Source: a virus (Duplodnaviria; Heunggongvirae; Uroviricota; Caudoviricetes). From it: a stretch of 7,296 nucleotides of DNA. The DNA is taken from the IMG/VR virus record IMGVR_UViG_2609459803_000009; one strand, written 5' to 3'. The position numbers and the translations under genes are program-made. The stretch's first letter is position 1. Every line of letters starts with the position of its first letter. Shown here one piece after another: positions 1 through 7,296 of the stretch. Under the pieces are notes generated by a model. The model made no database searches. It saw only the letters and a program-made list of their open reading frames with translations, and was not told the DNA's origin.

Positions 1-1170
1 TCACTCCTCATTTTCTTCTGAGCTGTACTCCACATCGGAGAGTTTAACCTCAAGCTCTAAGCCCGTCGTGAAACCGTTATTATTGAGGTTGTGGGTCACC
101 TTGCTGATTAACCATGCCTGCTCGTCTATGACGCGCTTAAAGCCTGACACGCGTACAGGCGTCTCAGGAAATAAATCCGCTCGCCCTAGCGCCAGTGTGA
201 TTGAAAACTCCGCAACGCCTCGCTGCAGTTTATCCCACTTAGCCTGAGCGGCGCGCATTGCCTGTGCCTTTGAGGCATAGACCGTCGTCAGCGCCAGCAC
301 GTTATCGGCTTCACCGGCCATGTACTCACCCTCACGTGCTTCCTGTTCTTTTTTGACCTTTGTCTTTTTGCTGACCGGCTTTGCTTTTGGGTGTTCCAGT
401 GCGCGCAGGTGCTTCTCTTTTGGCTTGCGTTTCAGCGTTACTTTCTGCTTTTGTGGCTTCGGGTCTTTGGTGTGCAACCATTTAGCAGTGACGCCGGTAT
501 AAGCCCCACGGTCGGCAATGGCAAACTGATGACGGTCACCATCACTGCGGGTCAGCGTCATTTGCGGGACGGGTTTGCCGCTGGCCGTCATCGCACTACC
601 GGCTTTCAGAAACAACAGTTTCCCTGCCTTCACCGATACCGTTGCCCCGTTGCGGTCAGCCAGTCGACTCAAAAATACCGCGTCGGATTCCTGCGACTGG
701 TCGATATGCGGTACCGGGATTTTTTTCAGCGATTCCGCAATGTTGGCCGTCAGTTTGTTGCGCTTTGCGATGGTACTGACCAGTTCGCCGATGGTGGTGT
801 CGTGCCATGACTCTTCACGCCTGGAATTTAGCGTGCCGCGAAAGTCCGCGCTGCGCGCCCGGATGGTCAGGGTATCAGGAGCCCCCCGGTGCTCAATCTC
901 ATCGACCGTAAAATCCCCCTTATTCAGCAGCGCCGAACCCTGCCAGCCAAGCCACAACGTCAGCACTGCCCCGCGCAGGGGTAACTCGACTTTCCCATCG
1001 GTGTCATCGAGCTCAATGTCGAGCTGGTCAGCTTCAAAGCCCCTATTGTCCGTCATGGTGAGAGAAATCAGCCGGTCGCTGAAGTTGCTGGTAATGTCCT
1101 GACTGTTCAGCGTCAGCATAAAAGCCGGTGCAAGGCTGGCACCGGCGTCAATTGCCATCCCCGTTATCAT
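1..1170 (-). CDS. D: P2-type late tail protein D (gpD, baseplate/tail-hub family)
   Basis: 389-aa minus-strand ORF with ATG at 1170-1168 and stop at the window edge (3-1). The translation has the conserved gpD character (RGFEADQLDIELDD, GDFTVDEIEHRGAPD, RSADFRGTLNSRRE, GAYTGVTAKWLH, EGEYMAGEADN) and an internal Lys/Pro-rich stretch. It is last in the conserved FI-FII-E-T-U-D order, and its ATG overlaps the U stop (ATGA). Confidence 0.9.
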   Translation of the reverse strand: MITGMAIDAGASLAPAFMLTLNSQDITSNFSDRLISLTMTDNRGFEADQLDIELDDTDGKVELPLRGAVLTLWLGWQGSALLNKGDFTVDEIEHRGAPDTLTIRARSADFRGTLNSRREESWHDTTIGELVSTIAKRNKLTANIAESLKKIPVPHIDQSQESDAVFLSRLADRNGATVSVKAGKLLFLKAGSAMTASGKPVPQMTLTRSDGDRHQFAIADRGAYTGVTAKWLHTKDPKPQKQKVTLKRKPKEKHLRALEHPKAKPVSKKTKVKKEQEAREGEYMAGEADNVLALTTVYASKAQAMRAAQAKWDKLQRGVAEFSITLALGRADLFPETPVRVSGFKRVIDEQAWLISKVTHNLNNNGFTTGLELEVKLSDVEYSSEENEE

Positions 1171-1652
1171 GCAGTGAAACCTCCGGGCATACCCTGCAGT
1201 TTATCTGTCAAATTACCGGCAGAGCCGAGAAGCTCACTGGCCTGTTTATTCAGGTCACCAAACATCTCTGTCAGCGATTCATCAACCCGTTTTAGCGAAA
1301 GCGTGAAATCAATCTTTCTGGCCGCACCATCACTGAAAAACTCGGTGCGTGTAGTCGATACTTTATCGACGATATACATCCCGAGGATATTTCCGGTTCC
1401 CTCTATCAACGGCCACGCTCTGCCTTCATTGGCCATCACCTCTACAGCCTTTAGTGAGATCCAACCGCCAGTGATAGCGGGGTATAGCGTACCAGCAAGC
1501 TGTATCGAGGTTTCCCCCTCGCCAAGAAACTGATAGGCAGGTGGTTTACCCACCCGGTCATTGGACACCCAGCGATAATCTTTCGAATGCTGCATCGACT
1601 GGTAAGGCAGGGTGCGAAGTTCAAACACAAACATTCCGAGAGCAAGCATCAT
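1167..1652 (-). CDS. U: P2-type tail protein U (gpU, tail completion/terminator-like)
   Basis: 161-aa ORF starting ATGATG at 1652, with a strong Shine-Dalgarno (GAGGGGG) about 8 nt upstream and lying 13 nt after the T stop. Position between T and D and a size of about 160 aa match P2 gpU. The stop TGA (1169-1167) overlaps the D start. Confidence 0.85.
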   Translation of the reverse strand: MMLALGMFVFELRTLPYQSMQHSKDYRWVSNDRVGKPPAYQFLGEGETSIQLAGTLYPAITGGWISLKAVEVMANEGRAWPLIEGTGNILGMYIVDKVSTTRTEFFSDGAARKIDFTLSLKRVDESLTEMFGDLNKQASELLGSAGNLTDKLQGMPGGFTA

Positions 1653-1665
1653 CGTTTAATCCCCC

Positions 1666-4110
1666 TCAATAGTCGTGGGTCATGTTGGCACGCTGGCGGG
1701 CGCGTTTATCGCGCTCAATCTGTTCGAGCGTGTCGCGTAGTTGTCTGTCAAGCTGATGCCCCGGCGCAACACCTCCCGGCAGATTGATGTTGTATTCGCT
1801 TTTGCTCTGGTCAATGTAAGAGCGCCCCGCCGGTGCGGTAACTGGCTGATAAGCCTGATAGCCGCCATATGTGCTGGTTGCCGGGATGTAGGAATTACCC
1901 TGTGTGGCGGCATTGGTTTTGGCGGCGGTCTGGTCGAGGCTGTCCGACTCTTTGTTGATGATGCCGAGCTTTTCGAGAAGCCAGTCGACACCGCTGCGCA
2001 GCTTGTTAAAAACATTGAGCGGAGCCATCAAGGCAGAGGCCAGTGCCTGACCAAATATGACGCCGACATTTTTGCAGCTATCAAGCGTTTCCTGCGTGGC
2101 CTTAACCGGTGCTATCAGGTCTTTAAACCACTGCCAGACGCCGCGCAGTTTCTCGCCGAGACCATCAAAAATGGGAGCCAGTGGAGCGAACATTTCCCCG
2201 ACTGGGGCAAAGGCACTCATGATGCCCTCAATCACTCCCGAGAAAAATGCGCTGATGGGCTCCCAATATTTACGGATGAGTAGCGCCCCCGCCACAATCG
2301 CCGCACCGACGGCCACTATCGGCCAGGTAATCGCACCGAGCGCTGTCGCAATGGCACTACCGACGACAGTAAAGACCGTACCCAGCACGCCAGCAGCGGC
2401 GATAATGGCATTAATTCCCATGACAACCGGCCACGCAACGAGACCAATGCCGCCGATGATACCAATCAGCGCCAGCGCACCACCGGCAATAATCCCGATA
2501 GTTGTCGTCAGCCCTTTGTTTTTCTGGATCCAGCCGTCGAGCTTCAACACGTATTGTGTGGCGGTTTGGGTGAGTTTGCGCAGCGAGCCCTCTTGCTGGT
2601 CAAAAAGGTCGGTACCGACAGCCTCATAAGCAGACTGGAACTCTTTAAAATCACCGCCGAGGTTGTCCTGCATAATTTTAACAAGCTCTGCGGTTTTTCC
2701 GTCTGAGGCTTTCAGGGTGGAGGTTAGCTGGTCAAGTTTGCCGGTTGAGGCGGCAGTCATGAGCACTGCCGCCGCCGAACTGGCTTCCTCACCGAATATC
2801 GTTTTCATGTATTCGGCTTGTTGACCGGTGCCGAGATTGTTACGCTCAAAACTGGCCTGCATTTCCTTGAGGATGGTAAAAATCGGGCGCGTGTTGCCTT
2901 TACTGTCGGAAGTTTTGACACCCAGCTCCTTAAGCGCATCCCACGCTTTACCGGTCGGAGCCTGCAGGCGGCTTAAAACCGCACGGCTCCCGGTGCCGGC
3001 CATCGAGCCGGTGATTTTGGCGTCATGCAGGGCGCCCACCATTGCGGCAGTTTCTTCAATGCTGACACCGGCATTTTTCGCCACCGGCGCGGCGTATGTC
3101 AGCGCATCGCTCAGCCCGTCGAAATCGGCAGCAGTTTTATTCATCACCGTCGACAGAACGTCGCCAATGTGCGCCACCTTGTCATTGGAAAGCTGAAACG
3201 CAGAGCGCATCCCCATCAGTAATGCGGCGTTTTCTTCCATCGTGCGACGGTTGGCAAGCGCCATATTGAGGGTGACCGGTGTCGTCGCCTGAATGGCTGC
3301 CGCATCGCCACCCCCTTTGGCGATAATAATCTGCGCACTGGCTGCATCATCAGCAGAAGCGGCTGTATTGTCACCGAGCTGGCGTGCCTGTTTGCGTAGC
3401 GCCTCCATTTCTGGTGACTGCTTATCGACCCCGAGCACAGCCTGCAGCTCGGAGTTTTTTTGCGCAAAGTCATAACCGGGCATCAGCAATTTAACCCCGG
3501 CCATCGTTCCCGCTGTCGCAATACCGACCCCGGCAGCACCTGCAGCGGCCATGTTACCGGCAAGTTCCTTACCCGATTTATATCGCTCTTTCACTCGGTT
3601 TAGGTGCGCCTGCTGTGCGCTGACCTTCGCCAATGCTTCGCGCTGCCGGTTGAGCTGCGCCGTCGTCTCGCTGATGCGTGTTTTAAGCCCCCGCTCATCG
3701 TTTGCCAGATTGCGGGTATTGATACCGGCGGCACCCAGCTCGCGTTGCTGGCGTTTAACCGACTCGGTGAGGCTGTTGTATTTAACCTGCAGCCCCTCGG
3801 CGGCACGTTTTGCGGATTCGAGCACCTGTGCCTGCGCTCGCGTCGGGCGCTCAGTATTTTTGAATTGCGTGGCAAGCGCTTCAGCCTCGCGCTTTGCCTT
3901 CTCCAGCGACTGGCCGGTTACGGCCAGTTGAGCGCTGGTTTTGCGAAAGCCGTCGATTTTCGCGGCCTGCCCGTTCAGGTCACGCAGCCCTTTTTGTGTG
4001 TCGCGAATATCGCCCGACAGGGTTTTACTCGCGGTCTGGATGGATTTAAGCGGTCGGGTCGCCTGGTCGACCGCTTTCAGCAAAACCTCAAGTCTCAGGT
4101 TATTACTCAT
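1666..4110 (-). CDS. T: Tail tape measure protein (gpT)
   Basis: 814-aa ORF. The N-terminal third is charged and coiled-coil-like (repeated Q/R/E/K/A heptad-like runs). A long Gly/Ala/Ile-rich hydrophobic block sits at about residues 534-612, typical of tape-measure proteins. It lies directly downstream of the E/E' frameshift pair, and its ATG (4110-4108) overlaps the E' stop. Confidence 0.92.
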   Translation of the reverse strand: MSNNLRLEVLLKAVDQATRPLKSIQTASKTLSGDIRDTQKGLRDLNGQAAKIDGFRKTSAQLAVTGQSLEKAKREAEALATQFKNTERPTRAQAQVLESAKRAAEGLQVKYNSLTESVKRQQRELGAAGINTRNLANDERGLKTRISETTAQLNRQREALAKVSAQQAHLNRVKERYKSGKELAGNMAAAGAAGVGIATAGTMAGVKLLMPGYDFAQKNSELQAVLGVDKQSPEMEALRKQARQLGDNTAASADDAASAQIIIAKGGGDAAAIQATTPVTLNMALANRRTMEENAALLMGMRSAFQLSNDKVAHIGDVLSTVMNKTAADFDGLSDALTYAAPVAKNAGVSIEETAAMVGALHDAKITGSMAGTGSRAVLSRLQAPTGKAWDALKELGVKTSDSKGNTRPIFTILKEMQASFERNNLGTGQQAEYMKTIFGEEASSAAAVLMTAASTGKLDQLTSTLKASDGKTAELVKIMQDNLGGDFKEFQSAYEAVGTDLFDQQEGSLRKLTQTATQYVLKLDGWIQKNKGLTTTIGIIAGGALALIGIIGGIGLVAWPVVMGINAIIAAAGVLGTVFTVVGSAIATALGAITWPIVAVGAAIVAGALLIRKYWEPISAFFSGVIEGIMSAFAPVGEMFAPLAPIFDGLGEKLRGVWQWFKDLIAPVKATQETLDSCKNVGVIFGQALASALMAPLNVFNKLRSGVDWLLEKLGIINKESDSLDQTAAKTNAATQGNSYIPATSTYGGYQAYQPVTAPAGRSYIDQSKSEYNINLPGGVAPGHQLDRQLRDTLEQIERDKRARQRANMTHDY

Positions 4111-4590
4111 TGTGGTGTCCGCTACGCTGCAGCGCCTTTTCGCGCCATGTGATGAGCTCGGTCAGGCTCAGGGAATAGAGCTCTGATGGCGACCAGTGGA
4201 ATATCACTGCAATATCCGCCATCAGGTCATCGGTCGACAGGTCGGGCGGAAAATCTACTCCGCCGAAGCCGGTGACAAAAAACCAATCACCTTAGCGGCC
4301 AGCGAAAGCATATCGGGCAGGTTCATCGCGGTTAGCTCCTGCGTGGTGAGCGCGGGATAGGTCATGCGGGGCAGCACTTTAATCAGCGCATCGACCTCGG
4401 ACTGCGCCACCGCCGCCAGACTGACACCGCGCAGGGTACCGGCGTTCGGCTCAATCAGGGTGACTTTATCAATCGTCTGACCGGCGCGCTTAATCGGCTT
4501 GTCGAGGGTCACGACGTTCGGGTTTACGGTGTCAATTTCATTGCCAGCCGTATCAACAAATTCAGCGGTTTTACGTGGTGCTTTTGCCAT
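4103..4590 (-). CDS. E+E': Tail assembly chaperone E+E' (gpE+E'), made by a programmed -1 frameshift at 4282-4276
   Basis: Zero frame 4590 to 4279, then a -1 slip on T-TTT-TTG. The -1 frame stays open for 57 codons (VTGFGGVDFPPDLSTDDLMADIAVIFHWSPSELYSLSLTELITWREKALQRSGHHNE) and ends at TAA 4105-4103, overlapping the T start. The predicted product is about 162 aa. This is the canonical arrangement upstream of tape-measure genes. Confidence 0.8.
4255..4590 (-). CDS. E: Tail assembly chaperone E (gpE, unshifted product)
   Basis: 111-aa ORF with ATG at 4590-4588 and stop TAG at 4257-4255. It sits between FII and T, and the slippery heptamer lies 6 codons before its stop. Confidence 0.85.
   Translation of the reverse strand: MAKAPRKTAEFVDTAGNEIDTVNPNVVTLDKPIKRAGQTIDKVTLIEPNAGTLRGVSLAAVAQSEVDALIKVLPRMTYPALTTQELTAMNLPDMLSLAAKVIGFLSPASAE
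4276..4282 (-). promoter_or_regulatory. Slippery heptanucleotide T-TTT-TTG for -1 programmed ribosomal frameshifting (E to E')
   Basis: The plus strand shows AAAAAA at 4277-4282 plus C at 4276, which is TTTTTTG on the coding strand, in the frame GGT-TTT-TTG of gpE. The -1 frame downstream is open until it overlaps the T start. Confidence 0.8.
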
Positions 4591-4638
4591 GATGTTTTTC
4601 TCTGCTCTGAAAGGGGATTAATAACCGGCCAGCCATGC

Positions 4639-4648
4639 TGACCGGTCA
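4639..4648. repeat. Perfect 10-bp palindrome TGACCGGTCA in the FII-E intergenic spacer, within a larger imperfect dyad CCATGcTGACCGGTCATGG (4633-4651)
   Basis: Read directly from the sequence. It lies in the 63-bp untranslated gap between the FII stop (4654) and the E start (4590). Function is unknown. Confidence 0.5.
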
Positions 4649-4653
4649 TGGAA

Positions 4654-5172
4654 TTACAGCCCGATTGCGCGGCGGTGCTGTTCCAGACGGTCGACGCCGT
4701 TCACCTTCTCGACCATGTTGACGGTGTCGATTTCGATGACGTCGCTACCATCAATCGTCAGGCGGTAATAGGTGCAGACCGTCGACAGTTTGGTCGAGGT
4801 GTTTTCACCCTGCTTATTTTCGCCGCCGTCGATTTCTTTATGACGGCCACGCATGACCACCTCGACCGCGTTGATTTCGCCGGTGTCGTCGCGCTGGTAG
4901 GATCCAGCAAAACGCAGCGGCACAGCGTCAGCACCCGGCGCGGCGTACTGCGCCCACAGAGCCACATCAGGCTGGCCACCGACAGACCACTCGACGGTTA
5001 ACGCATCATCGTCGAGACCGAGGTCAATCGCCGCCGCGCCATTCATGCCGCCGCCGCGATAGTTTTCGAGTTTGCGGGTCAGCTTCGGCAGCGTCACGGA
5101 TTCAACAACGCCCATATAGCTAAGGCCGTCGTTAAACATGTTCAGATATTTGAGTTTGCGGGGTAGTGCCAT
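4654..5172 (-). CDS. FII: Major tail tube protein (gpFII)
   Basis: 172-aa ORF with ATG at 5172-5170 and stop TAA at 4656-4654. A Shine-Dalgarno AGGAG lies in the 15-bp gap after FI. Size and position immediately downstream of the sheath gene match P2 FII. Confidence 0.88.
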   Translation of the reverse strand: MALPRKLKYLNMFNDGLSYMGVVESVTLPKLTRKLENYRGGGMNGAAAIDLGLDDDALTVEWSVGGQPDVALWAQYAAPGADAVPLRFAGSYQRDDTGEINAVEVVMRGRHKEIDGGENKQGENTSTKLSTVCTYYRLTIDGSDVIEIDTVNMVEKVNGVDRLEQHRRAIGL

Positions 5173-5187
5173 GTTGTTTCAGGCTCC

Positions 5188-6366
5188 TTAGCTGTTGACC
5201 GATTCGGCCAGATTCACCAGATATTTATCGGTGATACGCTGGCGCAGGGTCAGGCTTTCCAGTGGTGGAACCGGCGTATAGTCGTAGTCGATATACAGTT
5301 TCCCGGCCTTGAGGGTTTCCTTGTCATTCGATTCCTCGTCGAACCAGCATTCACCGTCCACGATGTAGCCATTTGATTTCAGCTCGCGGAATTTGGCATT
5401 AATGCCGTCGACAATGTCACGGATGAGCGATGCGGTAATGGGCTTATCGACCGCCCACATGTGAGCCTCGGCCATCGTGTCGGCCAGCACCTGCGCGGTG
5501 CGGGTGTAGTTCTCAAACAGGAAAAGCGGGTCATCAGAGCAGGTGCGGTTACCCCAAAAGCGGAAACCATCTTTGCGCACCAGCGTCGTGACCCCGGCCT
5601 CGTTGAGCAGGTCAGCATCGGTACCAGATGCCTGCAAATCCCAAAACACTGAGGCGCTGATGCCGGTGACACCCTGCACGCCGACGTTAGACAGGGTTTT
5701 ATGCCAGCCGACGGTCTGGTCGATGTAGGCGCGCAGGCCGAGTGCGCGCGCAGTGGCGTAGGCTGTTGCAGTGGCGTTCGCGGTGGTGTCCCATGCGAGG
5801 AAATCAGGCCAGATAAGCATCAGTTCGCGCTGGCTGAAATTCTCGCGATAGGCCATCGCCTCGGAAATAGTCTTACAGCCCCATGCACTGACATAGCCAA
5901 AGGCGCGCAGGCTGATACAGACCGACGCAAGTGCGACTGCGACCTCTTTGGTATCGAGCCCCGGCACGCCGAGAATGCGCGGCTTAACGCCGGTGACCGC
6001 TTCGGCAGTCAACAGCGCCTTGATACCGGTGTATTTACCGTTCTCATCCGTGCCGCCGATGATATTTGAAATGGTCTGCGCTTCCGCGTCTTCTCCGGTA
6101 CCTTCGGCAACACGCACGACAACGGTGACGGGCTTTGACTGGTCGGCGATGGCCTGCAGGGAGGCAGACAGCGTGCCTTTTTTACCGGCTTTCGCAATGG
6201 CGCTCTGCACATTGGTAATCAGTACCGGCTCGTTGAGGGGGAATGTCGCGGCATCCGCATCGCTGGCCGTGCAGACCATGCCGACAATTGCGGTTGCAAC
6301 AGTGGAAATGACGCGGGTGCCGTCGTTAATCTCAAGCACCTGCACGCCGTGGTGAAAATCACTCAT
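5188..6366 (-). CDS. FI: Contractile tail sheath protein (gpFI)
   Basis: The open frame runs 6393 to 5188 (401 codons from a TTG). The ATG at 6366-6364 (MSDFHHGVQVLEINDGTR...) has a GGAG Shine-Dalgarno about 9 nt upstream and matches the N-terminus I remember for P2 FI (MSDYHHGVQVLEIN), giving about 392 aa. The protein has a sheath-like size and conserved blocks (FRFWGNRTCSDDPLFLFENYTRTAQ, KLYIDYDYTPVPPLE). Confidence 0.9.
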   Translation of the reverse strand: MSDFHHGVQVLEINDGTRVISTVATAIVGMVCTASDADAATFPLNEPVLITNVQSAIAKAGKKGTLSASLQAIADQSKPVTVVVRVAEGTGEDAEAQTISNIIGGTDENGKYTGIKALLTAEAVTGVKPRILGVPGLDTKEVAVALASVCISLRAFGYVSAWGCKTISEAMAYRENFSQRELMLIWPDFLAWDTTANATATAYATARALGLRAYIDQTVGWHKTLSNVGVQGVTGISASVFWDLQASGTDADLLNEAGVTTLVRKDGFRFWGNRTCSDDPLFLFENYTRTAQVLADTMAEAHMWAVDKPITASLIRDIVDGINAKFRELKSNGYIVDGECWFDEESNDKETLKAGKLYIDYDYTPVPPLESLTLRQRITDKYLVNLAESVNS

Positions 6367-6393
6367 CCGGTTAACTCCGTGGTTAGTGGGCAA

Positions 6394-6464
6394 GTGTTAT
6401 TGTCCTGGCTGGTCTGTTGAGGGGCTATTTGTCAGTGTTGGGCGATGTCTGACACATTGAGACA
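6394..6464 (-). promoter_or_regulatory. Candidate late (activator-dependent) promoter region for the FI operon, with overlapping dyads TGTCAG-N13-CTGACA (6430-6454) and TGTCT-N9-AGACA (6446-6464)
   Basis: This is the only non-coding DNA upstream of FI. The dyad elements contain TGT...ACA half-sites resembling the P2 Ogr/Delta-type late promoter element (TGT-N12-ACA near -55), but the spacing here is N13 and no clear -35 is seen. This is a positional and motif inference only. Confidence 0.3.
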
Positions 6465-6707
6465 TCAGCAACGGATGCGGGAAATTTTTTGTATAGCGTT
6501 GAGATACCCGAGGCGATCCAGTTTCCAGACCACAAGCGTATCGCCCTCTGACAAGGTTCTGAGTAACCTCTTTAGCCCCGGCCAGTCTGATGTTTTGCCG
6601 CTGATTTTATCTTCGAAAATCAGCTCACATCCTGCGCACTCCAGTTCATTTCGCTGTAATGCGGTGTTCTGGTCATTTGTTGATACACGTACATAACCGA
6701 TAAACAT
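6465..6707 (-). pseudogene. Truncated serine DNA invertase (Hin/Gin/Cin/Pin family), N-terminal stub only
   Basis: The 80-aa ORF reads MFIGYVRVSTNDQNTALQRNELECAGCELIFEDKISGKTSDWPGLKRLLRTLSEGDTLVVWKLDRLG, which carries the resolvase/invertase N-terminus with the catalytic-Ser motif YVRVSTNDQ. It then diverges into 13 unrelated codons (YLNAIQKISRIRC) and stops. A full-length enzyme is about 185-190 aa and would run into FI. The C-terminal helix-turn-helix and most of the catalytic domain are absent. Confidence 0.8.
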
Positions 6708-6761
6708 GAGAAATAACCCGGTAAAAAGTCGGGATCATGCCAGCTGAACGGAATATCTGCA

Positions 6762-6787
6762 TTTTCTAAAAGGTTGGTTTGGGAGAA
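6762..6787. other. Candidate invertase crossover site (hix/gix/cix-like 26-bp site): TTTTCTAAAAGG-TT-GGTTTGGGAGAA
   Basis: The right half GGTTTGGGAGAA resembles the GGTTTTNGATAA half-site of gix/hix as I recall it; the left half is degenerate. The site sits exactly where the start-less tail-fibre frame opens (after TAA at 6767-6769) and about 60 bp upstream of the invertase ATG, as in Mu and Salmonella Hin systems. Similarity was judged by eye. Confidence 0.35.
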
Positions 6788-7123
6788 TTATCTCTGGCTG
6801 GCACTGCATCGGGTGTCATTGGTCTGAATGGGTATGTAACGATTCCGTTAATTATTTCAGGTTCCCGGAGAACACTGATTATTCAGTGGGGGCAGGCGAG
6901 ATTTGGTGGGTCTGGTGGTGAAGATGCCGGATATCTTAATGATTTTCCTTTTGCCTTTCCGTCAGCATGTTATGGAATGATAGTTAGTCATGTGGGGCAT
7001 ACACCTTCAGGCGCAGGAATCCTGTCGGCTTCTGCAATTACATCAAATCAGTTCCGCGGTTTTTCAAGCATAGCGACTGCTGCAAACGCTGTATTAGGTC
7101 GTTATATCGCTATAGGGGTGTAA
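6770..7123 (+). CDS. Tail-fibre C-terminal (receptor-binding) variable segment, probably the alternative, currently uncoupled arm of an invertible segment
   Basis: The plus-strand frame is open from 6770 and stops at TAA 7121-7123. It has no ATG or convincing ribosome-binding site (the ORF track starts it at TTG 6779). It is oriented opposite to the late operon and is followed 1 nt later by a coupled tail-fibre assembly gene. The region is AT-rich. The product is Gly/Ser-rich, about 115 aa, as expected for a fibre tip domain. Confidence 0.5.
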   Translation, partial: KVGLGELSLAGTASGVIGLNGYVTIPLIISGSRRTLIIQWGQARFGGSGGEDAGYLNDFPFAFPSACYGMIVSHVGHTPSGAGILSASAITSNQFRGFSSIATAANAVLGRYIAIGV

Positions 7124-7124
7124 T

Positions 7125-7296
7125 ATGTTTTATAGTCCATCTTTAAACATTTTTGTGAATCCTGCACTTAAGGATGATTACATTAATGCAAATTCATGGC
7201 CAGATGATGCTCTGGCTGTCAGTGATGATGTTTATAATGAATTTGCAATCAATACGCCTCCAGATGACAAAATTCGTGTTGCAGGAAAAAATGGAT
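7125..7296 (+). CDS. Tail fibre assembly protein (Tfa/gpG-like chaperone), N-terminal 57 codons, truncated by the window end
   Basis: ATG at 7125-7127 with a Shine-Dalgarno AGGGG about 7 nt upstream, directly after the fibre-segment stop (TAATATG). The translation MFYSPSLNIFVNPALKDDYINANSWPDDALAVSDDVYNEFAINTPPDDKIRVAGKNG resembles the N-terminus I recall for the Tfa family (aromatic-Ser start, then SWP.DA...S...Y.E). It is below the ORF-track length cut-off, so it was found by reading the sequence. Confidence 0.6.
   Translation, partial: MFYSPSLNIFVNPALKDDYINANSWPDDALAVSDDVYNEFAINTPPDDKIRVAGKNG

Follow-up and report, generated by a model that had tools for sequence, protein, structure and literature searches.

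The P1 C segment with its invertase Cin, Min of p15B, Hin of Salmonella with its hix sites and Fin of Fels-2 all belong to the same Din invertase family, share a class of 26-bp site and show cross-complementation; Min serves six sites, and Hin flips a promoter rather than fibre tips. Din invertases act across systems: Pin complements Gin, and Fin of Fels-2 acts on hix, a cross-action said to have been reported by Kutsukake in 2006. In the G segment of phage Mu (invertase Gin, genes S/U and S'/U', gix sites), a constant fibre part is followed by a site, a tip, Tfa (the tail-fibre assembly chaperone), an opposed Tfa', an opposed tip', a second site and the invertase gene gin, which is transcribed away from the segment. 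The same fusion logic is used by the P segment of e14 in E. coli K-12 (invertase Pin, gene pinE; stfE/ycfK; PMC4272514). In P2-like prophages of E. coli, inversion within clonal cultures has been shown by sequencing and PCR; both two-site and three-site versions are described for the P2-like prophage loci of EPEC E2348/69, and three-site versions give three alternative C-termini (Goldberg et al., 2014; PMC4272514).

The window analysed here is a stretch of phage DNA 7,296 nt in length. Its right end is very probably the invertase-proximal end, together with the silent arm, of a Din-family invertible tail-fibre segment in a P2-like prophage of E. coli. By descent and anatomy the locus is a member of the class outlined above. 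It is no autonomous switch, however: it lacks an intact invertase of its own and is therefore an orphan, a trans-dependent or a frozen copy. The features identified, with the evidence for each in brackets, are as follows.

1–1170, minus strand: gene D (ORF list and Pfam)
1167–1652, minus strand: gene U (ORF list and Pfam)
1666–4110, minus strand: tape measure gene T (ORF list and Pfam)
4255–4590, minus strand: gene E (ORF list and Pfam)
4654–5172, minus strand: tube gene FII (ORF list and Pfam)
5188–6366, minus strand: sheath gene FI (ORF list and Pfam)
6425–6506, minus strand, approximate: deletion junction (about 6503–6506) and out-of-frame 3' invertase remnant (alignment and BLAST to the intact gene)
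6507–6707, minus strand: N-terminal 67 codons of a Gin/Pin/Hin-type serine DNA invertase (Pfam Resolvase, PHROG 125, Gin)
6762–6787: 26-bp Din-type (hix/gix-like) crossover site, the predicted invertase-proximal end of the invertible segment
6762–6773: outer half-site, TTTTCTAAAAGG
6774–6775: core, TT
6776–6787: inner half-site, GGTTTGGGAGAA
6770–7123, plus strand: predicted silent variable C-terminal part of fibre gene H (Hv'), a Gp53-like_C receptor-binding tip (Pfam, PHROG, PDB and fusion)
7125–7296, plus strand: first 57 codons of Tfa', a tail-fibre assembly chaperone gene cut by the window end (PHROG 188 and a relative)

Judging from its gene content and its relatives, the window is almost certainly the tail module of a P2-like (Peduoviridae) prophage from E. 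coli (or Shigella). The earlier note on this DNA had placed all tail genes on the minus strand, and in the six-frame ORF list, read with Pfam, genes D, U, T, E, FII and FI do lie on that strand only, in the same order as is annotated in relatives. The window ORFs and Pfam matches follow the P2-like tail order, H-G ... FI-FII-E/E'-T-U-D-ogr, on one strand. In annotated E. coli loci, the relatives' tail genes have ogr at one side and H-I-J-W-V at the other, and the full P2-like order, including ogr and V-W-J-I-H, is present in the related loci L010 and L012. L010 is part of the chromosome of E. coli EC6622 (NZ_CP096587.1), to which window positions 1–6787 are 100% identical. Positions 1–7211 are 96.8% identical to E. 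coli E1535. L012 is collinear with the entire window, at 94.6% identity overall and 99–100% between the invertase remnant and the window end. Contigs scanned for exact copies of the 64-nt junction gave no hit; look-ups with the sheath protein and with the 114-aa product of the tip frame led to close relatives, of which EC6622 and L012 are the best proxies. By interval, its identity to the window is 99.7% in D, 90.6% in U–T, 95.0% in E–FI, 99.7% in the invertase remnant, 100% in the site, 99.1% in the tip and 100% in Tfa'. Such a mosaic profile points to recombination inside the tail operon among related prophages.

Also present in the tail module, at 4110–4590 on the minus strand, is gene E (111 aa) followed by a short GpE-family ORF, for which relatives annotate an overlap with the start of T. 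We take this to be the usual P2 E/E+E' tail-chaperone frameshift layout.

A hix/gix-like site had been proposed at the point where the fibre frame opens, and one can be read there in full. Positions 6762–6787 are TTTTCTAAAAGG-TT-GGTTTGGGAGAA, a half-site, a core and a half-site as in gix, which in the Mu record (NC_000929) is TTATCCAAAACC-TC-GGTTTACAGGAA. As in other sites of the Din class, the 12-bp halves form an imperfect palindrome around a 2-bp core. The conserved 19-nt core of the site has one copy in the window and none in 200 shuffles. The inner 14 nt, TTGGTTTGGGAGAA, are invariant across related loci save for single-base variants, each of them seen at one site. Nearly all related loci with the site have a second, inverted copy inside H, 1.5–1.9 kb away. 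Relatives from the window's own prophage family have TTCTTAAAAACC-TT-GGTTTGGGAGAA as this H-side partner, which forms a good palindrome. H and the tip frame read the site in the same codon phase: H encodes ..KNLGLGE.., and the S gene of Mu encodes ..QNLGLQE.. in the matching phase. An inverted-repeat search within the window found none, as expected with the partner beyond it. Only one direct repeat turned up in the window, a pair of 15-nt stretches (6792 and 7210; 87% identity) that is probably fortuitous.

The fibre frame on the plus strand does open directly after a stop, as had been claimed: a TAA at 6767–6769 precedes the opening at 6770, which is inside the site, and the frame closes with a TAA at 7121–7123. 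Its product matches Pfam PF21882, Gp53-like_C ('tail fiber protein gp53-like, C-terminal'; E = 1e-12) and, in PHROG tail-fibre families, the very C-terminus (last ~100 residues); there are also weak matches to two structures of R-type pyocin fibres, 6CXB and 6CL5. A search of the plus strand upstream of the tip gave no sigma-70-like promoter. The ATG of Tfa', at 7125, is one base past the tip stop and is preceded by GGGGTG. That a coupled Tfa begins here is confirmed by its 57 codons, which match PHROG 188, tail fibre assembly protein (E = 2e-14), and are 100% identical in product to the start of a 145-aa Caudo_TAP protein of L012. The 57-aa fragment has no Pfam match; PHROGs and the full-length relative gave its identity. 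Each tip has its Tfa and the arms converge, given Tfa' at 7125 and, in L012, the 145-aa Tfa' on the plus strand facing a 200-aa Tfa on the minus strand.

On the other side of the site we identified a serine invertase gene (ORF 6465–6707, minus strand), which starts 55 nt left of the site and is transcribed outward, away from the segment. The remnant matches Pfam Resolvase (E = 7e-20) and PHROG 125, DNA invertase (E = 1e-34), is 78% identical to residues 1–67 of Mu Gin and contains the catalytic-serine motif YVRVSTNDQ. The gene is not intact: 67 native residues are followed by 13 out of frame. Alignment with L002 and L022 indicates that ~311 nt are gone, corresponding to nt 202–516 of the intact 594-nt homologue, and that the frame is lost thereafter. 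With the deletion went the remainder of the catalytic domain, the oligomerisation helix and the greater part of the DNA-binding domain. The earlier note had suggested that the window captures one end of a host-range switch. The anatomy agrees with this, but the note overlooked the adjacent Gin-like pseudogene, and the switch is no longer self-sufficient.

Five loci share the deletion junction, namely the window, EC6622 (L010), L012, E1535 and E1739 (the loci aligned with the window being L001, L010, L012 and L021), and the phage record vB_EcoM-613R3 has it in identical form. A 1-nt frameshift in the pseudogene is common to L012, E1535 and E1739. In E1535, E1739 and EC6622, the gene carries the RefSeq label of an incomplete pseudogene. 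E1739 also contains a second partial match, the only hint of a trans-acting invertase.

The first 201 nt of the invertase gene are retained in the window. The Fis-dependent enhancer of the Hin and Gin systems sits in the 5' part of the invertase gene, and thus a cis enhancer may survive here. By analogy, retention of a Fis-dependent cis enhancer at the window locus is plausible; that of Hin is ~100 bp from hix (PMC3798978).

The layout had been likened to that of the non-expressed arm in Mu G, P1 C and e14 P, a comparison that anatomy and homology uphold. Shared with Mu G are the order of parts from the constant fibre region to the invertase, outward transcription of the invertase gene, a 12-2-12 site in the same reading phase with the motif (Q/K)NLGL(Q/G)E, and an invertase N-terminus that is 78% identical to Gin. 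Unlike Mu, the window phage is P2-like, its core is TT (TC in Mu), the segment is ~1.8 kb (3 kb in Mu), the tip families (Gp53-like_C and Collar) differ from those of Mu, and the invertase is a pseudogene. Among many E. coli genomes, pinE is found beside a gp53-like tip and Tfa that are ~91% identical to window 6507–7296. However, e14 itself is a lambdoid remnant, whereas the window segment lies between H and FI of a P2-like operon and has a truncated invertase. The EPEC E2348/69 loci are, by description, alike in phage type and mechanism (Goldberg et al., 2014; PMC4272514), and three-site versions also occur among the relatives considered here (L014, L011). Those loci flip in clonal cultures, presumably through their own invertase, whereas that of the window lineage has been lost.

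There is a gap of 1.3 kb between the window end and the position expected for the partner site, and the right-hand half of the segment is reconstructed from relatives. For this region the earlier note had predicted another Tfa and fibre tip in the opposite orientation, the 26-bp site in an inverted copy and the constant region of H, and L012 contains them in this arrangement. Beyond the equivalent of the window, the rest of Tfa' (145 aa, plus strand) precedes an opposed Tfa (200 aa, minus strand), an inverted site occurs 1831 nt away inside H, and H (367 aa, minus, the late-operon strand) is followed by I, J, W and V. This layout is shared by L001, L002 and L010, and an inverted site is found 1538–1873 nt away in all four collinear P2-like relatives checked (L012, L001, L010 and L002). 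EC6622 was considered as the inverted state of the window's genome and rejected, as window 6788–7296 matches nowhere in L010.

That inversion would fuse the constant part of H to the tip frame had also been proposed. In-silico inversion of the L012 segment, with exchange at the core dinucleotides, gives an open, in-phase fibre of 318 aa that ends in the window-type tip; variable C-termini with no expression signals of their own can thus be joined in phase across the site. Natural fusions of H to a tip occur in L021 and L022. In the latter (E. coli GPEC1035), the P2-like prophage has an intact invertase; the annotated H is 391 aa long, its last 115 residues agree with the window frame at 115/115 positions, and a Collar-type tip occupies the silent position. 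Across E. coli genomes, the window's tip is found both silent and fused to H. Among complete genomes, E1535 has the gp53-like tip beside the invertase pseudogene; E1739, JKHS016 and N21 have a Collar-type tip in that place and the gp53-like tip as part of H.

One pair of strains, E1535 and E1739, carries the same prophage (flanks 99.9% identical, same protein accessions) with a 1814-nt segment precisely inverted. The breakpoints are within the sites, the outer half-sites remain with the flanks, and an A/G difference in the inner half-site moves with its cassette, a pattern that places the exchange at or near the central TT. Both orientations therefore occur among carriers of the same invertase deletion and the same 1-nt frameshift. 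The difference might also stem from general recombination, through rare RecA-mediated exchange at the identical repeats of 20 nt, or from gene conversion among prophages.

Two further arrangements were observed among the relatives. L014 and L011 have a third crossover-like site, at 8074–8099 besides the one at 9984–10009 (L014 also has one at 11841–11866), together with extra small ORFs between the invertase and the gp53-like tip. These features suggest a multi-cassette (three-tip) version like that of an EPEC P2-like prophage. L019 and L013, in a prophage near trp/ompW, are a second case of one tip in both positions. In L019 (site 9984–10009), the outer half-site joined to the window-type tip is the H-side one, GTCTCGCAAACC; in L013 it is the invertase-side one. 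Neither locus has a long ORF called upstream for the constant part of H.

Based on these comparisons, we propose the following mechanism. The site at 6762–6787 would be one of two inverted crossover sites, the other being located, as judged from relatives, ~1.8 kb to the right inside H. Its sequence is expected to be TTCTCCCAAACCAAGGTTTTTAAGAA, or a close variant, on the plus strand ~1.8 kb right of 6787. In the captured orientation, the tip (6770–7123) and Tfa' would face against late transcription, have no promoter and be silent. The expressed arm, with another tip and Tfa, would lie beyond the window, fused to the constant part of H. Inversion would involve cleavage of both sites by a serine invertase at the central TT and rotation of the halves. 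The ...KNLGLGE of H would then be joined in phase to the tip, tip and Tfa' would come under the late promoter, and receptor specificity, and with it probably host range, would change.

As the resident invertase is a deletion pseudogene, this copy could switch only through the action in trans of a related invertase encoded by another prophage. The oppositely oriented E1535 and E1739 share the invertase deletion, and flipping has thus probably continued via an invertase supplied in trans. Adjoining the site, same-deletion lineages have no fewer than four types of cassette (those of the window/L012, L001, L010 and L025); EC6622 and vB_EcoM-613R3, for example, have the same deletion and quite different cassettes. 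Both orientations and at least four cassettes among carriers of one deletion indicate that recombination at or near the site went on after the deletion. We tentatively suggest, at somewhat less than even chances, that after its own invertase died the segment was still flipped by the invertases of other prophages in the same cell, and that 1.87-kb cassettes were swapped between unrelated prophage types.

With its invertase dead, the window copy may instead be frozen, its orientation locked since the loss of ~311 nt, and the tip and Tfa' would then be decaying leftovers that are never expressed. We consider this rather unlikely. The internal-deletion pseudogene, flagged as such in RefSeq relatives, is as expected of a relic, and no second invertase has been demonstrated in any carrier. 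However, the tip and Tfa' frames are intact and 99–100% identical to copies that are expressed or beside intact invertases, and Din invertases are known to cross-act. Orientation and cassette content both vary among strains with the same deletion (and, for orientation, the same frameshift).

The L012 segment (9991–11859, 1.87 kb) is 99.8% identical in L013, a non-P2 myovirus-type prophage, and in L014, another P2-like phage, and 99.0% identical in L018, a lambda-like prophage with gpJ. In these three loci, homology to the L012 segment ends exactly at both crossover sites. The window tip and Tfa' are also found, at 99% identity, in the Mu-like prophages L015, L017 and L020. The site coincides with two independent homology breaks: unrelated prophages with this cassette match the window from 6767–6774 onwards, and identity to EC6622 ends at 6787, the final base of the site, beyond which EC6622 has an unrelated cassette with a 112-aa tip and a 65-aa ORF. 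The 100% identity that stops at the site end implies a very recent cassette replacement bounded by the site. The shared segments fit the long-known mosaicism of fibre genes around Din sites. In L011, a degraded P2-like prophage, the gp53-like tip is kept (9992–10392), the match to the window ends at 7170 in Tfa', and most tail genes are missing; this is a cassette surviving in a decaying element.

Homology that starts and stops exactly at the sites, in unrelated prophages as in EC6622, would also be expected if the 'site' were only a conserved motif (NLGLGE) where homologous recombination swaps tips, the opposed tip and Tfa being a by-product of such exchanges with no site-specific inversion. 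We judge this reading improbable. An invertase gene or remnant adjoins the site in most loci examined, including every P2-like one (none is called in L017, and a further site or ORFs intervene in L014 and L016). Like gix, the sites have a 2-bp core and an imperfectly palindromic sequence; the difference between E1535 and E1739 is a clean reciprocal inversion, and inversion in such prophages has been observed within clonal cultures (PMC4272514). Site-specific inversion and mosaic exchange are not mutually exclusive.

It is very improbable that 6779–7123 is an independent small gene encoding a free-standing 114-aa protein from TTG 6779, with no fibre fragment awaiting fusion: the TTG has AAGG five bases upstream, the exact 114-aa product is recorded by gene callers in 182 blocks of the collection and PGAP annotates equivalents as CDSs, but the product matches only the last ~100 residues of fibre families, the TTG lies within the invariant recombination half-site, the identical sequence ends full-length H proteins in other genomes, and no promoter-like site is found upstream on the plus strand. 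The earlier claim that the frame has no initiation codon accordingly holds only in part. A TTG does exist at 6779, but its presence follows from the site: as a Leu codon (motif NLGLGE) it belongs to the invariant inner half-site, and the strand has no promoter-like sequence upstream. Gene callers and RefSeq/PGAP nevertheless call a CDS from this TTG, as a 114-aa or shorter 'gp53-like domain-containing protein'. RefSeq CDSs with that name, or named 'hypothetical protein', beside recombinase genes in P2-like prophages are silent fibre tips.

In summary, we read the right end of the window as the silent arm of an invertible fibre segment whose own invertase has been lost. The kind of switch is textbook, inversion has already been demonstrated in P2-like prophages, and the findings leave current understanding unchallenged; the orphan aspect is a modest addition. 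If segments like this one are indeed flipped by foreign invertases, the host range of one prophage would be controlled by the enzyme of another, and the conserved 14-bp inner half-site would serve a pan-phage pool of fibre-tip cassettes as a common docking point. One and the same pseudogene accompanies both orientations as well as different cassettes, which suggests that fibre switching, like cassette exchange, can rely on the invertases of co-resident prophages. Such dependence, if true, would matter for predicting the host range of prophages and for engineering the specificity of phages and tailocins.
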